A program made the translations under genes and the position numbers. DNA of 32,000 nt from Opitutia bacterium KCR 482 (GTDB lineage: Bacteria > Verrucomicrobiota > Verrucomicrobiia > Opitutales > Intestinicryptomonadaceae): contig CP149973.1 of NCBI GenBank assembly GCA_029269845.2, positions 1,620,001-1,652,000 of the forward strand, in the 5' to 3' direction. How positions within the stretch are numbered: the first letter of the stretch is position 1; each line of letters starts with the position of its first letter. This document shows, piece after piece, positions 14,560-31,374 of this stretch. A model generated the notes under the pieces. The model did not search any database and was not told the origin of the DNA. It was given only the letters and a program-made list of their open reading frames with translations.

Positions 14560-14637
14560 GCCGCCTTTTTTTGCCTTTTTGCGCAAGCTCGCGGAGGTCG
14601 GCTTGCAATTTCTTCAACTTGCGGCACATGCAAAAGC

Positions 14638-14720
14638 TACTCAGGACGGGACTCGAACCCGTACGACCGTAAAGTCAGCGGATTTTAAGTCCGCTGCGTC
14701 TACCATTCCGCCACCTGAGC
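14638..14720 (-). tRNA. tRNA-Leu (anticodon UAA), type II with long variable arm
   Basis: The minus strand folds by hand as GCTCAGG-TG-GCG(GAATGGTAGA)CGC-A-GCGGA(CTTAAAA)TCCGC-long variable arm-ACGGG(TTCGAGT)CCCGT-CCTGAGT-A. The 1:72 pair is G-U. CCA is not encoded. Confidence 0.92.
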
Positions 14721-14861
14721 AAAATTTCCCTCCGCCTGTCGCGGGGATTTTCCCGTAGCCGAAATTGCGGAGTAAACGCCGTATCGCGAAAAAATCGCCG
14801 TTTCGCGGGCTTCGGTGTCCGCCCGCAAGCCGCTTTTCGCAACATTCGGCATTGTCTGCTT

Positions 14862-14892
14862 CAAAAAATACGCCCTTGGTCTTGGGGCGTAT
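14862..14892 (-). terminator. intrinsic terminator downstream of tRNA-Val
   Basis: Minus strand: atacgccc-caagaccaa-gggcgtat followed by T6. Confidence 0.7.
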
Positions 14893-14921
14893 CGTTCGAA
14901 ATTATAAAAAAACTGCGGCAA

Positions 14922-14995
14922 TGGGGATACTCGGACTCGAACCGAGGACCCTCTGCGTGTGATGCAGATGCTCTAACCAACTGAGCTATATCCCC
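14922..14995 (-). tRNA. tRNA-Val (anticodon CAC)
   Basis: The minus strand forms a clean cloverleaf: GGGGATA-TA-GCTC(AGTTGGTTA)GAGC-A-TCTGC(ATCACAC)GCAGA-GGGTC-CTCGG(TTCGAGT)CCGAG-TATCCCC-A. CCA is not encoded. Confidence 0.95.
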
Positions 14996-15128
14996 TGACT
15001 ATCCGCCCATTCTTTCACATCGGCTTTGCGTTTGTCAAGTATCTTGATTGGCTTTGGCGCATTTTTTCGGCGCGGGGGCGGAAATTTTTGTGTTGAAATC
15101 GCGGCGCGGCGGCTCATTATCGTCGGGT

Positions 15129-15560
15129 ATGAGTAAAGAAATAGAAGAAGGTCTCAATTTGCAGCTCGATTTCACGAAGCTTAAAAAAATCGCGCAATGC
15201 TCCGAGGACGTAATCCCCGCAATCGCGCAATGCGCCGACACGGGCGAAGTTCTCATCGTCGGATACGTCAACAAGCTCGCCCTCGAAACGGCATTCAAAG
15301 AAGGCATGGCTACTTTTTGGAGCACTTCCAGAAACGAACTCTGGATTAAGGGCAAAACCAGCGGCGACTTCCTCAAACTCGTAGACGTTCTTGTGAACTG
15401 CGAGCAGAATTCGGTTGTCTATAAAGTCCGCATGGTCGGAAAAGGCTCGTGCCACACCAAGGACAAGTCCGGCAATCCCCGCCGCGGCTGCTACTACCGC
15501 AGAATAAAATTCGCCGACGGCAAGATTCAGGGACTTGAATTTCTCGACGGCATGGAATAA
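15129..15560 (+). CDS. hisI: phosphoribosyl-AMP cyclohydrolase HisI (monofunctional)
   Basis: The internal ATG at 15129 gives ..IPAIAQCADTGEVLIVGYVNKLALETAFKEGMATFWSTSRNELWIKGKTSGDFLKLVDVLVNCEQNSVVYKV...CHT.., a canonical HisI core. No HisE part is fused. Confidence 0.9.
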   Translation: MSKEIEEGLNLQLDFTKLKKIAQCSEDVIPAIAQCADTGEVLIVGYVNKLALETAFKEGMATFWSTSRNELWIKGKTSGDFLKLVDVLVNCEQNSVVYKVRMVGKGSCHTKDKSGNPRRGCYYRRIKFADGKIQGLEFLDGME

Positions 15561-15662
15561 ATTTTAGCTGGATTTTTCCGCATTTGCATACTATAAAGGG
15601 GGCAGTTTTTATGTCCGATACGTTTCGGATTTAAGCCCCGCAAAAACAACCACCAAACAGAT

Positions 15663-16787
15663 ATGAAGTTCAAAATCAACAAGGAACATTTTGTGACGGG
15701 TTTGCGTCAGGTCGCAAACGTCGTAAGCTCCAAACCGCCGAACGCAGTTCTCAACAACGTGCTCATCAAGGCAGAGGGCGACGTAGTGACCCTCACCACA
15801 ACAAACCTCGATTTGGGCATTCGCTGCTCAATCAAGGCGGAAGTCGAAAACGGCGGCGAAATTACGCTTCCCGTCAAGAAATTCGCGCAGATTGTGGGCG
15901 CGGCTCCCCAGCAGGAAATCACTTTCGAAAGCGACGACGGACAGACCGCAAAGGTGAAGTCGGGCGGCTTCTCCACAAAGCTCAACGGCCTCCGCGCGGA
16001 GGAATTCCCCGCGCTGCCGAGCTTCGTAGACCAGCACAGCTACGAGCTTCCCCCGCAGGAGCTTTTTAACATGCTCCGCTCCGTTTCCTACGCGAAAAGC
16101 TCCGACGAAAACCGCTACATCTTAAACAGCGTGTATTTCAACTTCTCCGAAGGAAAGCTCACTCTCGTTGCGACGGACGGCAAGCGCATGGCTCTCGTCT
16201 CGCGCGACATGAAGATAGAGCAGGAGGACGAAGGCAACGTCATTCTCCCCGCAAAGACCGTCGGCGAGCTTGAAAAGCTCCTCTCGCAGGGCAAGGTCGC
16301 AAAAATCAGCTTCAACGAACGTCAGGTTGCGTTCGACATCGACGTCGGCGGCGACGCCTCCGAAAACGGGCTTGTTGGGTCAATCTACCTCGTTTCGAAA
16401 ATCGTGGAGGGCAGCTACCCGAATTACAAGCAGGTAATTCCCAAAGAGGCGGAGCACAGAATCAAGGTTGACCGCGAGCTCATGCTCGAAACCGTCAACC
16501 GCGTTGCGATTCTCACGAGCGACAAGCAGAATTCGGTAAAGCTTACGATGTCCGAAAACTCGCTCGAAATCTCGACGCGCAGCGCGGAGGGCGACGCAAA
16601 GCAGGCTATCGAAATCGAATATTCGGGTCCCGAAGTACAAATCGGCTTCAACCCCGAATTCCTCAAACAGCCGCTTGGCAGCATTTCGAAAGACGAAGTT
16701 TTCTTCGAATTCAAGGACGAAATGAGCCCCGGAGTTTTCAAGACGCTCGACAACTTTATGTGCGTCGTAATGCCGCTTAGAATCTAA
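15663..16787 (+). CDS. dnaN: DNA polymerase III beta sliding clamp
   Basis: 374 aa, [53 protein letters not shown]...LPVKKF..., with three-domain clamp length and pattern. Confidence 0.95.
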
Positions 16788-18889: not shown

Positions 18890-20587
18890 TTATTCCTCCC
18901 CCTTTTCGGGCTTCGCCTTTTTCGGCGGGGTCAGCGTTTCGCGCAGTTTTTCAGCCCTCGCTTTCGACAGTTCGTCGCGCGAGGCGCTTACGAACATCGA
19001 CACCACCTTGTTCGCGCTTCGGTAGTCTTCGACCGACACGAAAAGTTTTGCAAGCGGCATCGTTATTTTGCGCAGGCACTCGTCGGGGCAGGAGGTCGAG
19101 TTTCTCACGATATCCTGATATGCGGGCAGGATTTCCGTTTTGTCTTCGGCGCGGGCGAACATGTCGGAAATCTGGTTCGCGTAGATGTCGATGCCAAGCC
19201 CCGTGTCGGAGCGCATTACGCCGCGCATTTCGGCGGTGAGCAGCCTGTCCGCCTCTTTGCCGCGCCTGAGGGCGATGAGGTTTTGGCGGTAGAAATTGAG
19301 CATTGCAATGCACATGTCGGGGTAGCGGCGGAACGCTTCGTAGCTTTTGCGCCAGTAAGAGTCAAGCTCGCCCTGCGACGCCCCGAAGCGCGCGCGCGCC
19401 GAGATGAACGCGATGTACGCCTCCCAGTTTTCGGGATTTTCCTTGCGGGCTTTGTCGGCGAAAACGGCGGCATCGTTGTTTTTGCCCGCGTCGTAGAGCA
19501 TGCGCGAAATTTCGAGGAACACGCGCGAGAAGATTCCCGCCTCCGTCGTGATGTGGCGGCGGGCGAGCATGTCGATGTCGAACTTCTGCGATGTCCTCCA
19601 TGTTTGCGGGTCGAGCGGGCGTCCGAAGAGGTGTTTTGCCTTTTCGCTGCGGGCGACGTCGTGCTTCCAGACCCCCGGCCGCGACATGTACGCAAGCCAC
19701 GCCTGTTTGCCCTCGCGGAAGAAAAGGCAGGGTATGCCGTTGGCGTTTGCGATTCTCCACGCGCAGTAGACTTTTTCCGCCTCCGTGCCGCCGTATTTGA
19801 GGATATTTTTCGGGGTGAATTCGCGCTCCGACGCGTCCCAGTCGGCAACGACTCCGTTTGCGTAGCGCGACTTGTCGGTCTTTATCGAGTGCGCAAGCTT
19901 TTCTATCGCGAACGGCGCAATGCTCGTGTTTTTCAGTCCGCGCAGCTCGTCGAGCGGCCCGCCGATTCCGAACACCCAGATAAGTTCGCCGACCGTCAGC
20001 CTGTCCATCGGGAACACGAACGTATGCGGGTCTTCCGTGAAAATGTTGAAGGTTTCCTCCGCCTGAAACATCGGGACGGGGTCGGACGGCGTTCCGCAGT
20101 TCGGCCAGCCGCCGGGGGGCGGAACGTCGTAGACGAGCGAGACCGCGAACGCGCTCCTCAGGTATTTTTTGAAATTGTCGGGGTAGACTTGGTGGATTTG
20201 CGCGAGCGTTTTGCAGACGCCTTCGAGGTTGTCTTCGGGCTTCATTGTCTCGAAAAAGTCGCAGAGCGCGGGAATGTCGGATAGCATTGCGCGTTTTACC
20301 GCCGTGTGCAAAGACGTCCCCTCCTTCGAGAAGAGGTCCGCCGCCTTGTAGACGTAGAGCCAGCCCGCGGCTTCGGGGTAGAGCTGTTTGAGGGCGAGGT
20401 CGAGGGTTGTCGCGCGGGTCTTTTCGGCGTATTCGCCCCACGCCTGCGCGCTGTCGTTTTCGAGCAGTTTGTCTATGTCCGACTGCGAAATCGGCGAAAC
20501 GGGAAGCTTGGGCAGTTCGGGCACTGCGTGTTGCGCCGACGCCGCGACCGCCGAAATGCAAAAAATTATTGCGCTAAAAAACCTCAT
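18890..20587 (-). CDS. secreted hypothetical protein with a possible transglutaminase-like core and a helical (TPR-like) C-terminal half
   Basis: Signal peptide [19 protein letters not shown]. The segment [25 protein letters not shown]...[17 protein letters not shown] resembles the Cys / (H)AW / D layout of transglutaminase-like cysteine peptidases. The C-terminal half is helical, ending in a Lys/Glu-rich tail. Confidence 0.75.
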
Positions 20588-20838: not shown

Positions 20839-20869
20839 CAAAAAACGCCCGACCTTGCGGCGCGGGCGT
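20839..20869 (-). terminator. Rho-independent terminator ending the ATPase cluster
   Basis: Minus strand: acgcccg-cgccgcaaggt-cgggcgt followed by T6. It lies 22 nt downstream of the stop at 20891. Confidence 0.75.
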
Positions 20870-20890: not shown

Positions 20891-21229
20891 TTATGCTGCG
20901 GGCTGTTCTTCCGCGGCGGGGGCAACCTTTGCCGCCTTTGTCTTGCGGCGGCGGCGTTTCGCCTTGGGCTTTTCCTCCGCGGGCGCGGCGGCTTCGCCAG
21001 ATTCCGCGGCAAGTTCGCGTTCGGCGATGATGTCTTCAATCTTTTCTTTGAGCGTCGCGAGCTCTTCGACGGACATATTGTTCAACGGCTTGTTTTCGTT
21101 GACGGGAATGTCCATTCCGTGCGAACGCAGGATTTCGTCGATTTTATCCTGATTCTTTTTGTAGAGGTAGAAGCCTGTCGCTGCGATGCCGATGCCGAGC
21201 GCGGCTCCGATTATATGGTCTCTTGTCAT
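20891..21229 (-). CDS. small membrane-anchored protein with coiled acidic middle and Lys/Arg/Ala/Pro-rich tail (hypothetical)
   Basis: 112 aa. ATG preceded by aaaggaac. TM segment IIGAALGIGIAATGFYLY, then ..MSVEELATLKEKIEDIIAERELAAE.., then ..EEKPKAKRRRRKTKAAKVAPAAEE. It starts 28 nt after the ATPase stop on the same strand. Confidence 0.7.
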   Translation of the reverse strand: MTRDHIIGAALGIGIAATGFYLYKKNQDKIDEILRSHGMDIPVNENKPLNNMSVEELATLKEKIEDIIAERELAAESGEAAAPAEEKPKAKRRRRKTKAAKVAPAAEEQPAA

Positions 21230-21257
21230 GTTTGTTCCTTTCGGTTTTGATTTAAAG

Positions 21258-23477
21258 TTATTTTAGCGAAGGCGGACGCCCCATATCGTAAAACAATATT
21301 CTCATACTGTTGGCTACAACCAGAATTGTCGAGGAATTATGCATCACCGCTCCGAAAATTACGGGAATTGTTCCGAGCGCGCCCAGCATAAGCCCGAGTG
21401 TGTTTATGCCGACCGCCGCTATCAGGTTCTGCCGCACGACGTCCATCGTATACTTTGAAAGCCCGTAGATTCCGGGGAGCATGAGGGCGTTGTCGCCTGC
21501 TATCGTGATGTCGGAAGCCTCCATTGCGACGTCCGTGCGCGTCTTGCCGAGCGCGATTCCAACGTCGGCGTAGGCGAGGGCGGGGGCGTCGTTTATGCCG
21601 TCGCCTACCATCACCACCTTGTTCCCGCGAGCCTGCATGCCGAGCACCACGCGCGCCTTGTCTTCGGGCAGAAGCTCGTACTCGTAGCTGTCTATTCCGA
21701 GTCTGCGAGCCACGACGTCCGCCTGCTGTTCGAGGTCTCCCGTAAGCAGAACGATGTCGTCCACCCCCACGTTGCGCAGGCGGTTGAGAGCCTTTTTCAT
21801 GTTCTCGCGCAGGGGGTCTCTAATTCCGATAAGCCCCGCGATTTCGTCGTCCTTCGAGACGAACACCACGTTTTCGCCCTTTGCGAAAAGCGCGGACGCC
21901 TGTTCGCGCATGGAGTGCGTGTGGATTCCGCTTTCGTTGAGGAATTTCTTGTTGCCCACGCGGATTGTAGAGCCGCCTACCGTGGTGTACACGCCGCGCC
22001 CGACAATCGTATTGACGTCGCCGTGCTGCGGAATGCGGACGCCCTCACGCGTGGCGGCGTCGAGAATCGCCGACGCCATAGGGTGTTTCGAGGTTTCCTC
22101 CGCCGCCGCCGCGTAGCAGACGATGTCTTTTTGCGTAAATTTTTTCGACTGCGGCACTATGCTTTCCACGCACGGTTTGCCCTCTGTGAGAGTGCCCGTC
22201 TTGTCGAGAATGAGCGTGTCCGCCTTGCTCATGGACTCAATCACGCCGCTTCCCTTGATGAGCACGCCCTGCCGCGCCGCAGTGTTGATTGCCGCCGACA
22301 GCGCCGCCGCCGTCGAAAGCTTTATGCCGCAGGAGTAGTCTATGATGAGCATGTTCAACGCCCTGTTCATGTCGCGCGTGAGCGCGTAGACCAAGCCCGC
22401 AAGAACTATGTTGAGCGGCACGAGGGCGGACGAAAATTTGTCGGCGTAGTTTTGTACCTCCGCCTTTTTGCCGCCCGCGTCCTCGACCATTTTTATGATT
22501 TTCGAGACCGCCGTGTTCTCGCCCGCAGACTCCACTTTGCAGGTTATTGTGCCCTCCACCACGAGCGTTCCCGCGAACACCCTGCCGCCCGTCTTGCGCG
22601 AGACGGGTTCGAATTCGCCCGTAATCGACGACTGGTTGATTACCGCGTGCCCCGAGACAATCTCGCCGTCGGCGCAGATTTTTTCGCCAGAATGCACCAC
22701 GATTATGTCGCCCGATTTCAGGCTCTTTGCGGGGATTTTTTCGAGCGGGCTGCCGATTTTGTTTTTCAGCGGGTGCCAGACCGTTTCGTTTTCGACCGAA
22801 AGCATGTCGCGGATTGCGTTGCGCGTGCGGTTCATCGTGTAGACCGTCATCGACTCCGCCAAGTCGTGCAGGAATAGCACCGTCAGCGCCGACGCCGTTT
22901 TGCCCGAAAGCACGCTCGAAAGCACCGCCATTGCGCTCAGCGTGTCGGCGTTGGGAAGCATCGACCTTTTGAACGCGCCGATTCCGCTCTTGAAAAGCGG
23001 GTATGCGAGCGCGAGCGCGCCGATTCCCGGAAAGCCGAAAAGTCTGCCCGCGATTGTCGCAGGCACCGTCTTCTTTGCGAGCCACGAGCCGAGCAGTAGC
23101 GACGCCGAAACCGCGCTCCGCGTAATGAGCGTCGAAAGCGGTTCTTCGTGCAAATCGCGCTCCTCCACCAAAAGCCTGTTCTTTTCCTCCCGCTCCCTTT
23201 GAAGTATGCCGAGCGAGTGCGCGGCGATGATTTCCTCGACCGCCGACATGATTCTGTCGGGCGTAGTTTTTTCGGCGTCGAACTTCACCACGACGGACTC
23301 CGCCGCGGGGTTTATCCTCACCGATTCCACGCCTTCCAAAATCTGGAAGTGCGAAAGCAGGTGTTCGCGCTCGCCGCCTTTCCCGACGTAGCGCAACCCC
23401 CTGCATGTAATCCTTATTCTTCCGCGTAATTCGTGGGCGCGGAAGCATTTCAACAGAGGCGTTTTTTTCTTGAACAT
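21258..23477 (-). CDS. P1B-type (heavy-metal family) P-type ATPase, atypical: S-C-G instead of C-P-C, cysteine-free HMA-like N-domain (P1B-6 / FezB-like)
   Basis: 739 aa with SITGEFEP (TGE), DKTGTLT, SKHPMA (HP), LLTGD and GDGINDAPAL. The TM helix preceding DKTGT reads LIIDYSCGIKLS, where Cu/Zn pumps have CPC. The last TM helix reads MHNSSTILVV. The N-terminal roughly 85 aa (..HELRGRIRITCRGL...VESVRINPAAESVVVKFD..) is HMA-like without CxxC. Confidence 0.9.
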   Translation of the reverse strand: MFKKKTPLLKCFRAHELRGRIRITCRGLRYVGKGGEREHLLSHFQILEGVESVRINPAAESVVVKFDAEKTTPDRIMSAVEEIIAAHSLGILQREREEKNRLLVEERDLHEEPLSTLITRSAVSASLLLGSWLAKKTVPATIAGRLFGFPGIGALALAYPLFKSGIGAFKRSMLPNADTLSAMAVLSSVLSGKTASALTVLFLHDLAESMTVYTMNRTRNAIRDMLSVENETVWHPLKNKIGSPLEKIPAKSLKSGDIIVVHSGEKICADGEIVSGHAVINQSSITGEFEPVSRKTGGRVFAGTLVVEGTITCKVESAGENTAVSKIIKMVEDAGGKKAEVQNYADKFSSALVPLNIVLAGLVYALTRDMNRALNMLIIDYSCGIKLSTAAALSAAINTAARQGVLIKGSGVIESMSKADTLILDKTGTLTEGKPCVESIVPQSKKFTQKDIVCYAAAAEETSKHPMASAILDAATREGVRIPQHGDVNTIVGRGVYTTVGGSTIRVGNKKFLNESGIHTHSMREQASALFAKGENVVFVSKDDEIAGLIGIRDPLRENMKKALNRLRNVGVDDIVLLTGDLEQQADVVARRLGIDSYEYELLPEDKARVVLGMQARGNKVVMVGDGINDAPALAYADVGIALGKTRTDVAMEASDITIAGDNALMLPGIYGLSKYTMDVVRQNLIAAVGINTLGLMLGALGTIPVIFGAVMHNSSTILVVANSMRILFYDMGRPPSLK

Positions 23478-23481
23478 ATCC

Positions 23482-23850
23482 TTATTTTAAATTGTCGAGC
23501 GCGGATTTTATCCGTTTTGCCAGCGTTTTTTCGTCGGCTTCGGCGGCGTCGGGCGAGCACGCAATTTCAAGCGTAGCGTTCCACGCGCCGCGAATCCACG
23601 CCATTACGGCGTCCTCCGACGTCTCGTTCGGATTGTAGGATACAAGCAGATTTCCCGTGATTTTGCAAAGCGAAACTTCCGTAATTCCGACCCTCTTTTT
23701 GAGGGCGTTCAGAAACATCGGCGCGTATTTTTCCGCGTATTCGGGGTACGACTTTATGCCGCCGACGTTGATTCGCAGGCGTCCGCGTATGCTGTGGAGC
23801 ACTTTCAGGCTTCCGACAAACGAAAGCGCGATTTTTTTCAGCGGGTTCAT
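23482..23850 (-). CDS. small cysteine-free HMA-like (HMA2-type) domain protein
   Basis: The internal ATG at 23850 overlaps the upstream stop as ATGA. The 122-aa product reads MNPLKKIALSFVGSLKVLHSIRGRLRINVGGIKS...GITEVSLCKITGNLLVSYNPNETS.., paralogous to the ATPase N-domain. The longer listed ORF (to 24114) is Arg/Pro-rich and lies inside the upstream gene. Confidence 0.75.
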   Translation of the reverse strand: MNPLKKIALSFVGSLKVLHSIRGRLRINVGGIKSYPEYAEKYAPMFLNALKKRVGITEVSLCKITGNLLVSYNPNETSEDAVMAWIRGAWNATLEIACSPDAAEADEKTLAKRIKSALDNLK

Positions 23851-24386
23851 TTGCAGATGTTCACGCTTTGGAAGAGCCACCAGAGCAGGTTCGTGGGGAA
23901 CGACGGCGTTGTTGTCTGTATCTTGAATGTCCTGCGGAGAATCGGTACGGTTTTGAGGAGTTGGAGAATCAGCAGAATCGTCATGAGTGCGCGGAGGTCG
24001 AAAAGTCCCTTTGTGCGCTGCATGAGAGCCTGATTGAACGCGTAGCCTATTGTGGTAAGCTCGCTTGCAAGCAGCGATTTCCTCGACTTCACCTGCGCCT
24101 CGAAGTCGAAGCAATAGGTGAGGGCGGATACCACGATTACGGGCGAAAGCGTCTTGGCGTCGTATTCCACAAGCACCGTTCCGAGCATCGGGTTTGCCGA
24201 TATTTTCCTTATGCCGCCCACTCCCGACAGCGTTTTTACGATTCGCTCCGCAATGGCGCGGTTCGACTTCATCGACGGTATGCGCACGCGCATTCTGCCC
24301 GCTATCGAGTGTTTTACTTCGAGAACTCCCTGAAACGACGGCGCGCGCATGGCGGCGTCCAAAATACTGTTGCCTTGTATATTCAT
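23847..24386 (-). CDS. HMA-like (HMA2-type) domain protein with hydrophobic C-terminal region
   Basis: 179 aa. ..VLEVKHSIAGRMRVRIPSMKSNRAIAERIVKTLSGVGGIRKISANPMLGTVLVEYDAKTLSP.. is followed by hydrophobic LFDLRALMTILLILQLLKTVPIL and PTNLLWWLF. aagagg lies upstream of the ATG. Confidence 0.78.
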   Translation of the reverse strand: MNIQGNSILDAAMRAPSFQGVLEVKHSIAGRMRVRIPSMKSNRAIAERIVKTLSGVGGIRKISANPMLGTVLVEYDAKTLSPVIVVSALTYCFDFEAQVKSRKSLLASELTTIGYAFNQALMQRTKGLFDLRALMTILLILQLLKTVPILRRTFKIQTTTPSFPTNLLWWLFQSVNICK

Positions 24387-24441
24387 TGAAATGTTGCCTC
24401 TTGGTTGGGGGCGTTTGCGCCCATTGTTGAAAAGTTAATTT

Positions 24442-24470
24442 AGTCTAACTTTTCCGTTTCCCATTGTCAA
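24442..24470 (-). promoter_or_regulatory. sigma70-like promoter candidate for the HMA-like/ATPase cluster
   Basis: Minus strand: TTGACA, 17 nt, TAGACT, about 55 nt upstream of the ATG at 24386. A gggcg-caaa-cgccc hairpin sits in the predicted 5' UTR. Hexamer matching only. Confidence 0.4.
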
Positions 24471-24501
24471 GTTTTTTGGGGGGCGTGGCGGTTTGGGGTG
24501 C

Positions 24502-24530
24502 AAAAAAAAGCCCGCCGCATTGCGCGTCGG
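24502..24530 (-). terminator. intrinsic terminator candidate after eno
   Basis: Minus strand: an imperfect hairpin cgacgc-gcaat-gcggcg followed by ggc and T8. Confidence 0.5.
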
Positions 24531-24568: not shown

Positions 24569-26107
<1,539 letters not shown>

Positions 26108-29406: not shown

Positions 29407-31374
29407 ATGAAGATTGATTTAAACAAAAAAACGCTTCTTGCGCTGTCGGCAATTTCCGCGCTTTTCCTTTGCGGGTGCGATTTCGGCGGCGCGGACGCCG
29501 CTGGCAAGTCCGCCGATTCGGCGGAGTCGGCGAAAATTTCGGCGGCGGCGAAAAAATATTTTCCCGACAGCCCCGAACTCCAATCGGAGTGGATTCGCAG
29601 ACAGACCGACGCGCGCGCGGAGCTGTCGCGCTTTCTGCCGAACATATCGGTTGCGGACTTCGCGGAAATCCGCGACAGGGCGGCGGCAAAGTTTCCCGAC
29701 AACTACGCGGAGAGACTCGCCTACACGGTTGAGCAGTGCGACTATTGCGCGGCGGCGGCTTCGGCGTATTCCGCGCTTTCGCAAAGCGACGCCGCGTTTG
29801 TGCGCAAGCTCGCCGAAGCCCGCTACCCCGACGACTACAAGGGGCGGTGCGCCTACGCTGCGGGCTGGCGCGAGGCGTTGTCCGAGCTTGACTACAAACT
29901 GAAACAGTTCCCGTCGGAGGAGTTCGAGCCTCTGCGCGCGCGGGCGATTGCCGCGGCTGGCGGAGACTCCGCAAAAGCCGTAAAACTGCTGGAAGCGCAG
30001 GCGAGGGCAAAGCGCGAGTTCGACTCGTTCCGTCCGCGCAGCATCTCGGTTGCGACGCTCGAAAATTTGAAGAGCGCGGCGATGTCGGAATCCGCCGACT
30101 ATGCGGAGCGGCTCGCATCTCTCAAACGCGCGGTTGTAGGGGCGGCGAACCCGAAGCGGGATTCGGGCGCGTCGGATTCTGAAAGCGCGCCGCCGCTCTC
30201 CCGTGCGGAGAGGATTTTCGCAAAGTCGCTCTTCACAAAACGAGGCGTCGAAAACGAAATCCACGCGGCGGTGCTCGCAAAATTCAAGGGCAGGACGGTC
30301 GTGCTGTGCACAAAGGAATTCATGCCCGAAAAATTCCCCGTGGTGTTCGCAAACGCGGCGGGAAAAGTGTCGTGCTCGCGCGCGTTCGTTTCGGACGAGC
30401 TTCCGCTGCTAATGCTCGTGCCCGATTCCGTGCCGCAGTCGCTCGAAGCCTTGGAGATTGCCGACGACTCCGAAGTCCGCATGGGCGCGGAGCTTCTGGC
30501 GGTCGCCCCCGACGGCGGCGGATTCCGCTCTCTGGGAGTTTCGGTGTTTTCGGCGGACGAAAAATACCTCAACCTCACCGCCGACACGAACCCGCGCGTT
30601 TCGCATAAAATCGACGTAAAACACGTCGGCAGGGACGCAAAGACTTTCGTTTCGGTCTCGGAAATTTCGGAGGTCGGTGACGACGCCGTGGCGGTTGACG
30701 CGAAGACGGGGAAGCTTGTCTCGTTCTCGGTCAGGATATACAATCCGGGGGTGCTGTCGCACCACGGAAAGACGGGGTCAATCATCGGGCACGAAAATTC
30801 GCCCATTCCCGACTTCACGACTTTCGTAAGGCAGTTCGACGGCAGCGTGAACAAGACTTTCGTTCCGTTCAGCTCGATACGCTTCGTCCGCATGGGTGCG
30901 TTGGAAAAATGGAAGCCGCTCGACATCGCAAAATTCGCCCGCCAGAAAAACGAAATCAGGATTCTTACCGACGAAAACAACGACTTCATGATGTTTTTCA
31001 AAAACAACACATTCGGCGAGGCGTTGCGGTCGCGCAGGCTCGGCACAATCGCGGAGCGGTACAAAAAGCCGTTTCTGCACGACAGGCTCAGCCGCGAGTC
31101 CTACGAACGCTCTTACAGAAACTACATGATTGAAGTTTCGTTCGCGCTCAAACGCGAGCTTCAGCACTACGCCAATCCCGACGCATTCTACTCGATTTAC
31201 AGGCAGGAGCTTCTCTACCAGCTGAAACTCCGCCGCTCGATGTACGAATACCTCGCGGAGGGAGTCAAGGACACGAACATCGTAAACATTCTCCACACGG
31301 ACCTCGCAACCCGATACGACAACTGCGGCGTGAACACCGAGCGCGTCGGCGGTTCCATCGGGGGCGGATATTGA
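29407..31374 (+). CDS. hypothetical lipoprotein with five N-terminal helical repeats of about 45 aa and a large uncharacterised C-terminal region
   Basis: Signal peptide plus lipobox-like ALFLCGC. Repeats: AAAKKYFPDSPELQSEWIRRQ; IRDRAAAKFPDNYAERLAYTVEQ; VRKLAEARYPDDYKGRCAYAAGW; LRARAIAAAGGDSAKAVKLLEAQ; LKSAAMSESADYAERLASLKR. Amino-acid composition is normal and there is no better competing frame. Confidence 0.8.
   Translation: MKIDLNKKTLLALSAISALFLCGCDFGGADAAGKSADSAESAKISAAAKKYFPDSPELQSEWIRRQTDARAELSRFLPNISVADFAEIRDRAAAKFPDNYAERLAYTVEQCDYCAAAASAYSALSQSDAAFVRKLAEARYPDDYKGRCAYAAGWREALSELDYKLKQFPSEEFEPLRARAIAAAGGDSAKAVKLLEAQARAKREFDSFRPRSISVATLENLKSAAMSESADYAERLASLKRAVVGAANPKRDSGASDSESAPPLSRAERIFAKSLFTKRGVENEIHAAVLAKFKGRTVVLCTKEFMPEKFPVVFANAAGKVSCSRAFVSDELPLLMLVPDSVPQSLEALEIADDSEVRMGAELLAVAPDGGGFRSLGVSVFSADEKYLNLTADTNPRVSHKIDVKHVGRDAKTFVSVSEISEVGDDAVAVDAKTGKLVSFSVRIYNPGVLSHHGKTGSIIGHENSPIPDFTTFVRQFDGSVNKTFVPFSSIRFVRMGALEKWKPLDIAKFARQKNEIRILTDENNDFMMFFKNNTFGEALRSRRLGTIAERYKKPFLHDRLSRESYERSYRNYMIEVSFALKRELQHYANPDAFYSIYRQELLYQLKLRRSMYEYLAEGVKDTNIVNILHTDLATRYDNCGVNTERVGGSIGGGY

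Follow-up and report, generated by a model that had tools for sequence, protein, structure and literature searches.

The genome of Opitutia bacterium KCR 482, a gut-type member of Verrucomicrobiota, carries, on the minus strand at positions 20891-24386 of the 32,000-nt stretch analysed here (the window, in which all coordinates are counted), four same-direction genes, g1-g4, that form one self-contained operon for a P1B-type metal-pumping ATPase. By its sequence, the pump is a relative of FezB, the ATPase of ferrosome (fez) gene clusters, that lies outside the FezB clade, in a clade which we call DxSCG for the motif in its fourth transmembrane helix (TM4). We give a probability of about 55% to the reading that the operon encodes a scaffolded pump of this clade, probably moving Fe2+ from the cytoplasm, in a specialised membrane patch. 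The gene set and order of DxSCG operons are conserved over several phyla (Verrucomicrobiota, Clostridia, Fusobacteria, Bacillales, and others), and the operon of the window is the minimal four-gene verrucomicrobial form of this widespread family. The genes, found by calling open reading frames (ORFs), are the following.

23847-24386, minus strand: g1, 179 amino acids (aa), membrane-type HMA_2/CoBaHMA protein
23482-23850, minus strand: g2, 122 aa, soluble CoBaHMA protein; the start is the ATG at 23850, not that of a longer TTG ORF
21258-23477, minus strand: g3, 739 aa, P1B-type ATPase of the DxSCG clade
20891-21229, minus strand: g4, 112 aa, small glycine-zipper protein

An earlier note, made from the letters of this DNA, had described four co-directional genes packed as one unit, and the ORFs and all three junctions read as it said. 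The stop codon of g1 and the start codon of g2 overlap in ATGA at 23850-23847, g2 and g3 are separated by 4 nt (ggat, 23481-23478), and g3 and g4 by 28 nt (21257-21230). Identical copies of the four proteins are on public record as WYJ06952-WYJ06955, from a 2.30-Mb contig of Opitutia bacterium KCR 482, where the annotation says no more than heavy-metal P-type ATPase, "HMA2 domain-containing" protein (for two of them), and hypothetical protein. The source belongs to Verrucomicrobiota (Opitutia), in agreement with the host from the Planctomycetes-Verrucomicrobia-Chlamydiae group that had been suspected.

Synteny, suggested earlier as a check, is kept in DxSCG loci of several phyla. In nearly all loci examined, the order starts with an HMA_2 protein (165-191 aa) that ends in a hairpin, followed by a soluble HMA_2 protein (122-130 aa) and the ATPase; a third CoBaHMA protein (198-280 aa, with the CoBaHMA motif at its start and a hydrophobic middle) may come next, and a g4-type protein of 74-112 aa is last. 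Such operons were found in Tepidibacter, two Clostridium species, Fusobacterium vincentii, the Priestia megaterium plasmid pBM400, Marithrix, a metagenome-assembled genome labelled Hyphomicrobiales, further metagenome contigs, and two verrucomicrobial loci, L089 and L091. Two loci depart from this order: the Priestia plasmid has genes one and two swapped, and at the Marithrix locus (L087) the soluble protein is missing. The verrucomicrobial operons (the window; L091, 86% identity; L089, 70% identity) all lack the third CoBaHMA gene, and since their flanks differ, the four genes are an autonomous unit. Beyond rows in the supplementary tables of Grant et al., our literature search found no name or description for the DxSCG ATPase clade, its operon, or the g4 family, and searches on "HMA2 domain-containing protein" and on strain KCR 482 found nothing. 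As a side observation, a second CoBaHMA-type P-type ATPase (748 aa) and a 78-aa protein lie immediately upstream of the full five-gene DxSCG operon in one metagenome contig (L094 119-2573), where the module appears to be duplicated in tandem.

The ATPase g3 matches the NCBIfam model TIGR01525 (1.2e-159) and no specific equivalog. It has the P-type catalytic motifs (TGE at residue 286, DKTGT at 425, HP at 465, and GDGINDAP at 625), with no CPx and no CxxC anywhere in the sequence, as had been noticed before. In place of a CxxC domain it carries at its N-terminus the R-rich motif HELRGRIRITCR, a property by which FezB is also recognised. The sites that bear on its assignment are:

23208-23450, minus strand: N-terminal CoBaHMA domain of the ATPase, residues 10-90, KCFRAHELRGRIRITCRG...
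22326-22340, minus strand: TM4 metal-site motif DYSCG (its FezB counterpart is D[Y/F]SCA)
22191-22205, minus strand: DKTGT phosphorylation motif, from a motif scan
21327-21341, minus strand: motif HNSST (HNxxT) of the sixth transmembrane helix (TM6), residues 713-717, preceded by N692-x20

DYSCG and HNSST are invariant in 13 relatives of 48-86% identity. The N-x(n)-HN-x-S/T spacing is common to FezB-type, DxSCG-type, and CtpC-type sequences and is not specific for FezB.

We took the definition of FezB from the 2020 preprint of Grant et al. and its supplementary tables, and that of P1B-6, called the "SCA" subfamily, from a separate source (PMC13460109). Grant et al. grouped the pumps by their TM4/6 signature motif and by phylogeny, FezB/P1B-6 being D[Y/F]SCA plus HNxxT (bioRxiv 10.1101/2020.01.10.902569). 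In the accessible part of the supplementary material, Supplementary Table 1 contains 306 FezB rows, among them R. palustris RPA2333, S. putrefaciens Sputcn32_3193, C. difficile, and, from Verrucomicrobia, Akkermansia Amuc_1083 (DYSCAIK/HNAST); the ferrosome makers R. palustris, C. difficile, and S. putrefaciens stand in the FezB colour group with the SCA motif, and the FezB of D. magneticus is the founding member (bioRxiv 10.1101/2020.01.10.902569). The same part of the table has a separate, unnamed group of 40 rows (pink, #FCE7F1) with D[YF]xCG[ILV][KR], HNxxT, and H-x3-GR-x-R-x-x-C[RK]; it includes C. kluyveri CKL_1140, C. sporogenes CLOSPO_03649, C. botulinum, C. acetireducens CLAOCE_12990, Intestinibacter, Fusobacterium, Leptotrichia, Bacillus/Priestia plasmids, Selenomonads, and Spirochaetes (bioRxiv 10.1101/2020.01.10.902569). 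One FezB-coloured row in this part, Coriobacteriaceae 68-1-3, has DYSCG as well (bioRxiv 10.1101/2020.01.10.902569), so the TM4 motif alone is not decisive.

The pump of the window agrees with the 40-row group in its motif triplet, DYSCGIK / HNSST / H-x3-GRIRI-x-CR, in its identity of 47-52% to members from other phyla, and in the organisation of the operon. Its identity to the Arcobacter FezB-type pump is 31%, compared with these 47-52% to DxSCG pumps of Fusobacteria, Clostridia, and Proteobacteria. A pump of C. acetireducens DSM 10703 (P0111), 49% identical to that of the window, has the same three motif strings as CLAOCE_12990. In the accessible part of the table the 40-row group has no verrucomicrobial row; the two occurrences of "Verrucomicrobia" examined there are those of the FezB-type Amuc_1083 of Akkermansia.

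For a wider comparison, genome contigs were searched with a profile of the ATPase alignment, which gave at least 80 P1B pumps, all at no more than 38% identity among the matches listed; close relatives were not among these matches, nor was any of the four model ferrosome organisms, and they served as outgroups and as the negative set. The neighbour-joining tree included 96 P1B ATPases (the pump of the window, 12 homologues, 4 plasmid-borne pumps, and 79 from the contig search; 672 columns, 100 bootstraps), classed by their aligned TM4 and TM6 motifs. The DxSCG clade, with the pump of the window in it, and the FezB-type clade are each monophyletic in 100/100 bootstraps, and the two are exclusive sisters in just 6/100; FezH-like (SCPCATV), cyanobacterial-type (DYGTGIR), and CtpC-type (ACPCAVG) sequences interleave between them. 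Three sequences anchor the tree to the groups of Grant et al.: L048 is the FezB row of Anaerotignum lactatifermentans, L029 is Paraburkholderia acidipaludis of the yellow group, and P0111 belongs to the pink group.

The pump had been taken for FezB/P1B-6. Its DYSCG motif, its separate 100/100 clade, and the position of the relative CLAOCE_12990 in the other group of Grant et al. speak against that assignment. A phylogeny had been proposed as the test: it does place the pump away from the classical P1B-1/2/4 groups, but not with the FezB-type clade. As the pump belongs to the DxSCG clade, the cluster does not encode the FezB homologue that marks a fez cluster. An easy annotation error is thereby corrected: the absence of CPC together with HNxxT and HMA-like neighbours does not equal FezB.

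The second feature of the operon is its set of CoBaHMA domains, in g1, in g2, and at the N-terminus of the ATPase. CoBaHMA corresponds to Pfam HMA_2 (PF19991) and is an HMA fold with an extra b0 strand that holds a conserved His; it has basic residues on b1 and b2 and no CxxC, and a role in binding anionic lipids or in regulation has been proposed (PMC8890360). This feature is the "R-rich motif" of Grant et al. The Pfam search gave the HMA_2 matches that had been expected for g1 (1.5e-33, 116.4 bits against a cut-off of 30, with 152/154 profile positions covered) and for g2 (1.6e-08, 35.1 bits against the same cut-off, over the domain part of the model). The N-terminus of the ATPase matches HMA at 29 bits, above the cut-off of 24.8, and HMA_2 at 28.9 bits, just under the cut-off of 30. 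All three copies have the pattern H-x3-GR-x-R and none has CxxC: g1 KHSIAGRMRVRI, g2 LHSIRGRLRINV, and g3 AHELRGRIRITCR. The three domains had been called cysteine-free. Their number stands by Pfam, but g1 and g2 each have two cysteines and the N-terminus of the ATPase has C11 and C25; CxxC alone is missing. The CoBaHMA domain family is reportedly also treated by Gaschignard et al. in 2024.

The domain of g1 spans approximately residues 20-100, with H25 and GRMRVRI. Its C-terminus is a hydrophobic helical hairpin with a conserved WW, and Kyte-Doolittle hydropathy gives a transmembrane (TM) segment at 131-149. The AlphaFold2 (AF2) model of g1 has the order b0-b1-a1-b2-b3-a2, with b0 and b1 at 22-28 and 31-35 and a predicted local confidence (pLDDT) of 85-91 over residues 20-100; with this model, Foldseek found the HMA domains of MerP, CopZ, ATP7B, and ZiaA at TM-scores of 0.70-0.76. 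By hhalign, the profile of the g1 family aligns with that of an HMA2 protein whose gene lies downstream of the FezB-type pump in Cereibacter (probability 95%, E 4e-8), and therefore the g1 domain is homologous to that of a fez-cluster HMA2 protein. By hydropathy, g2 (H19, GRLRINV) has no hydrophobic segment; the exact protein falls in a sequence cluster of 74 members. The N-terminal domain of the ATPase is modelled by AF2 at a pLDDT of ~88, with b0 at 12-17 and b1 at 20-24. FezC consists of an HMA domain and two TM helices (bioRxiv 10.1101/2020.01.10.902569). Judged by sequence, the architecture of g1 resembles FezC and that of g2 resembles FezD.

The two cysteines at the N-terminus of the ATPase (window 23403-23447) were observed separately. 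C11 is invariant in 13 relatives, and C25 is conserved in at least 90% and replaced by Ser in Fusobacteria. They lie at both ends of the predicted b0-b1 hairpin, flanking H-x3-GRxR, and counterparts are absent from g1, g2, and the FezB-type rows. They may form a clade-specific metal or redox site.

The third feature is the small protein g4, with two conserved segments.

21158-21217, minus strand: glycine-zipper/GxxxG segment of g4, residues 5-24, HIIGAALGIGIAATGFYLYK; G8, G12, G19, and Y23 are invariant in the family
20996-21070, minus strand: conserved acidic helix of g4, VEELATLKEKIEDIIAERELAAESG; E55, L57, K61, E62, E65, D66, A69, and E70 are invariant

Residues 5-24 include GAALG and GIGIA, so that g4 is a small hydrophobic GxxxG protein as in fez clusters. 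In the family alignment the zipper and a KK pair are followed by the acidic helix VEELATLKEKIEDIIAERE. The protein had been described as tail-anchored; we reject this, as the hydrophobic segment lies at the N-terminus (5-24), with KK after it. By the positive-inside rule, this KK suggests that the C-terminus of g4 is cytoplasmic. The tail consists of Ala, Glu, Lys, and Arg, and its Lys/Arg-rich extension is specific to the lineage, being absent from the operon of the 70%-identical relative and from other phyla. The Lys/Arg tail is not conserved in the family alignment and was rejected as a feature of the family.

We found no Pfam or NCBIfam family for g4, the matches to Reticulon and H-NS_N being weak and under their cut-offs. 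The family has 99 representative clusters at E <=1e-3 among 1.84 billion proteins. Its hidden Markov model finds a member in 9/9 DxSCG loci that cover the relevant side and in 0/80 other P1B loci, with one weak exception in Arcobacter (E 7e-4), a 90-aa small protein with a Lys-rich tail ("FIAGVIVGAVGFYAYKNKD") inside a FezB-type cluster. The profile match of g4 to the YtxH-annotated fez protein of Arcobacter is likewise weak (probability 15.7%). On the other hand, the g4 motif DHIIGAALGIGIAA, of the pattern D-x-[ILV]-x-G-x3-G, fits GxxxG Group 2-1 of Grant et al., whose Supplementary Table 4, in its accessible part, gives the GxxxG motifs "DFVKGALIGAAATF" and "QFLLGLLIGGLAAY" of RPA2334 (bioRxiv 10.1101/2020.01.10.902569). 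By sequence, g4 thus fits the same class as the FezA/E/G (GxxxG) proteins. The earlier suspicion that a Lys/Arg-tailed protein might not match the described fez sets is not borne out, given this motif and the Lys-rich-tailed protein of the Arcobacter cluster. Homologues of the small proteins do occur beside FezB-type pumps, as had been anticipated, clearly in the case of the Cereibacter HMA2 protein and weakly in that of Arcobacter. Separately, the representative search returned a protein of 1238 aa (P0259) in which "VKSTKDKIAEMIENANIPTQT" is repeated eight times in tandem; the repeats look like residues 22-70 of g4, a likeness that is probably repetitive or convergent.

In the model that we favour, the pump would hydrolyse ATP and move a divalent metal out of the cytoplasm, with Fe2+ as the most likely substrate. 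Fe2+ is our best guess because the Ser-Cys of TM4 and the His-Asn-Thr of TM6 are the same as in FezB, unlike the Cys-Pro-Cys of CtpC. The small protein g4 would oligomerise in the membrane via its glycine zipper, and its acidic helix and/or anionic lipids would engage the basic faces of the three CoBaHMA domains (g1, g2, and g3). Engaged in this way, the pump would be gathered and stabilised in a specialised patch of membrane, which could be either a ferrosome-like vesicle inside the cell that stores iron or a platform for efflux at the cell membrane. Intracellular vesicles are what FezB-type clusters fill (bioRxiv 10.1101/2020.01.10.902569), and we slightly favour a vesicle over a pure efflux platform. 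The favoured role of g4 as a scaffold is drawn by analogy from PacL, which has one TM helix with GxxG followed by Glu/Ala repeats, binds the metal-binding N-terminal domain of CtpC, and clusters the pump (PMC13460109).

Several observations weigh against this model. CtpC, a related R-rich pump, is a Zn exporter at the cell membrane (PMC13460109), which means that the cell biology of related R-rich pumps is not uniform, and as the pump of the window is not FezB, ferrosome formation cannot be transferred to it by homology. The parallel for the scaffold lacks a counterpart in homology: the g4 family and the PacL-like protein of one comparison locus (L005) show no detectable relationship (hhalign probability 0.2%), and the matches of g4 to fez GxxxG proteins are weak (E 7e-4 and 1.7e-3, over 21-24 residues). 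Fez clusters are frequently accompanied by iron-homeostasis genes (Feo, Fur, DtxR, siderophore receptors). Within the window, no iron genes adjoin the operon, no Fur-box-like site was found (7-1-7 consensus, <=3 mismatches), and Rfam gave no riboswitch, just two tRNAs. Among related loci, iron-uptake genes adjoin only 2 of ~13, which is suggestive only: feoB-feoA-feoA-feoB lies directly upstream of the operon in Tepidibacter hydrothermalis (L085 1-3881), and a divergent Fe(III)-type ATP-binding cassette (ABC) importer lies beside it in L093 (403-5915). The tree is a neighbour-joining and not a maximum-likelihood tree and is without the four FezB sequences that have experimental validation, the helix count of the pump is 6 or 8 by crude hydropathy and an AF2 model with a membrane pLDDT of <50, compared with six for FezB, and the literature search found no experimental study on any DxSCG-clade member. 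Apart from these points, L093 also has an extra, third upstream HMA_2 protein beside the operon.

A first alternative is that the operon is a true fez cluster, with the pump a functional orthologue of FezB in which the Ala of TM4 has become Gly, and that it builds membrane-bounded iron-phosphate granules under anaerobic iron shifts, just as D. magneticus, S. putrefaciens, R. palustris, and C. difficile do. We regard this as unlikely. The likeness in build is considerable: in both cases a compact operon surrounds a P1B ATPase without CPC or CxxC, with HNxxT in TM6, Ser-Cys in TM4, and an N-terminal R-rich/CoBaHMA domain, and all classes of fez proteins are represented (a FezC-like R-rich membrane protein, a FezD-like R-rich soluble protein, a FezA/E/G-like GxxxG protein, and the P1B pump with HNxxT). 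Four genes also fall within the range of 2-10 for the clusters of Grant et al. (bioRxiv 10.1101/2020.01.10.902569), and adjacency to feo or other iron-uptake genes occurs occasionally, in the two related loci with feo and Fe(III)-importer genes. What had been called a minimal fez-like cluster therefore remains so in its fez-type build and accessory classes, but its pump falls outside the FezB clade. The DYSCG row of Coriobacteriaceae in the FezB colour shows that at least one pump counted as FezB in the accessible part of the table shares the Gly, and in that part the DxSCG genomes of C. kluyveri, C. acetireducens, and Intestinibacter are not among the FezB-bearing ones, which is compatible with functional replacement. 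However, Grant et al. themselves split the two groups by motif and phylogeny, the pump has DYSCG and not D[Y/F]SCA, its identity to FezB-type pumps is far below that to DxSCG pumps of other phyla, and the two clades, each fully supported, are not robust sisters. The accessory set differs too: DxSCG operons have 3-4 CoBaHMA domains (three here, four in most other phyla), their g4 family is essentially DxSCG-specific, and the cluster of the window has no DUF2202 ferritin-like, FeoA, or DUF4405 gene. Ferrosome formation is an experimental result for fez clusters, while no DxSCG member appears in the experimental literature that we searched.

A second alternative places the operon in the cytoplasmic membrane as an efflux platform like PacL-CtpC. 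For detoxification, the pump would move surplus Zn2+, Mn2+, or Fe2+ into the periplasm, with g4 as chaperone and scaffold and g1 and g2 as regulatory adaptors; we think that this probably does not apply. CtpC is a member of the same R-rich, HNxS/T super-group and has been termed P1B-6-like (PMC13460109). The effluxosomes of M. tuberculosis (PacL with CtpC/G/V) share with the window a small single-pass protein that has small-xx(x)-small in its TM helix and an acidic, helical portion in the cytosol, encoded next to an R-rich P1B pump without CxxC, and PacL is laid out like g4, with an N-terminal TM helix containing small-xx-small followed by an acidic Glu/Ala helix that binds the N-terminal domain of the pump. 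In L005 a PacL-like gene of 93 aa lies directly upstream of a CtpC-type pump, and most DxSCG loci, that of the window included, have no iron genes nearby. Still, the small gene of the window is downstream of the pump whereas PacL is upstream, and no DUF1490 match to g4 came up at E as high as 10, besides the lack of profile similarity between g4 and the PacL-like protein. PacL operons are without stand-alone CoBaHMA proteins. TM4 has SCG and not the CPC of CtpC, a Zn exporter, and the residues of the metal site are closest to those of FezB.

A classical heavy-metal pump of P1B-1, -2, or -4 type is very improbable and, on sequence grounds, largely refuted: the matches to TIGR01525 and to the Cd and ZntA models of NCBIfam are all below equivalog cut-offs and the N-terminus shows weak similarity to HMA and CopZ, but TM4 has no CPC, SPC, or CPH, CxxC is absent throughout, the pump branches far from the CopA, ZntA/CadA, SPC, and CPG groups in the neighbour-joining tree, and the accessory HMA-like proteins lack metal-binding cysteines and carry the basic CoBaHMA signature.

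The scaffolded DxSCG pump that we favour also invites comparison with calcyanin. The CoBaHMA family shares the HMA/ferredoxin-like fold, the b0 strand with His, the basic b1, the absence of CxxC, and a glycine-zipper partner, and in calcyanin the CoBaHMA domain and (GlyZip)3 are fused in one protein. In the operon of the window there are instead three copies, on the pump and on two stand-alone proteins, with the glycine zipper supplied by a further small protein, and the setting is that of a P-type ATPase, compared with calcium-carbonate biomineralisation for calcyanin.

Two regulatory candidates and the surroundings of the operon complete its description.

24442-24470, minus strand: sigma-70-like promoter candidate, TTGACA-17 nt-TAGACT, 55 nt upstream of the ATG of g1
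20839-20869, minus strand: intrinsic-terminator-like hairpin with a GC-rich stem, a GCAA loop, and U6, 22 nt past the stop codon of g4

The promoter had been proposed before, and the site is present with a match at 10/12 positions; chance alone would give ~1.5 matches this good over the 4.3-kb region. Relatives do not share it: an alignment of the upstream regions with two of them revealed no common operator or promoter, because their flanks differ. TTGACA-17-TAGACT is a plausible but not proven promoter of the operon. The terminator, which had also been pointed out, has a canonical shape and reads, from 20869 to 20839, ACGCCCGCGCC-GCAA-GGUCGGGCGU followed by U6. A 66-nt stretch that contains it and an upstream 5-bp hairpin folds at -23.6 kcal/mol; its z-score against shuffles is only -1.5, and an automatic terminator scan missed the site.

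Neighbouring genes in the window are dnaN, lpxK, a gene for a secreted protein of no known family, eno, a gene for a Gfo/Idh/MocA oxidoreductase, and hisS. The eno gene (24569-25897, minus strand) is followed by its own hairpin with T8 at ~24495-24525 (minus strand), directly upstream of the promoter candidate, which apparently shields the operon from eno transcription. A 565-aa ORF (18890-20587, minus strand) comes right after the operon terminator; it has a signal-peptide-like N-terminus and no Pfam match, and it is not kept beside the operon in relatives. A 655-aa ORF at 29407-31374 (plus strand) has no Pfam match either. Farther away are tRNA-Leu(taa) (14636-14721, minus strand), tRNA-Val(cac) (14922-14995, minus strand), and dnaN (15663-16787, plus strand); this region, 14636-16787, may be near the replication origin, and the GC-skew profile is without a clear switch. 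Long ORFs run antisense to the ATPase and its neighbours, for example one of 320 aa at 21915-22877 (plus strand), and are rich in Arg, Ala, and Gly; we rejected them as genes and consider them artefacts of the high G+C content.

Ferrosomes are among the few lipid-bounded organelles known in bacteria, and genetic tests so far have all used FezB pumps with the SCA motif. The work of Grant et al. is said to have appeared later in Nature (2022), and ferrosomes of C. difficile are said to be the subject of Pi et al. (Nature, 2023). Anaerobes of medical and industrial relevance have the DxSCG operon (Fusobacterium, C. botulinum, C. sporogenes, Intestinibacter, and gut Verrucomicrobia), and several of them appear to be without FezB. 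If these operons build iron granules, ferrosome-like organelles would be known from more lineages, and the sequence rules for recognising them would be wider as well. If they are efflux platforms, ferrosomes and mycobacterial effluxosomes would be linked through a shared scaffold principle. Only tentatively, as something that may well not hold, we propose that DxSCG operons are a second class of CoBaHMA-scaffolded metal compartment or platform, based on the basic CoBaHMA face and an acidic-helix glycine-zipper protein, which gut Verrucomicrobia, Fusobacterium, C. botulinum, C. sporogenes, and Priestia plasmids may have in common. By analogy, the same partnership may recur in FezB/C with FezA/E/G, in the N-terminal domain of CtpC with PacL, and in the calcyanin of cyanobacterial carbonate inclusions. 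If this is true, the pairing of CoBaHMA with a glycine zipper would be a module that bacteria use generally to build membranes specialised in handling metals.

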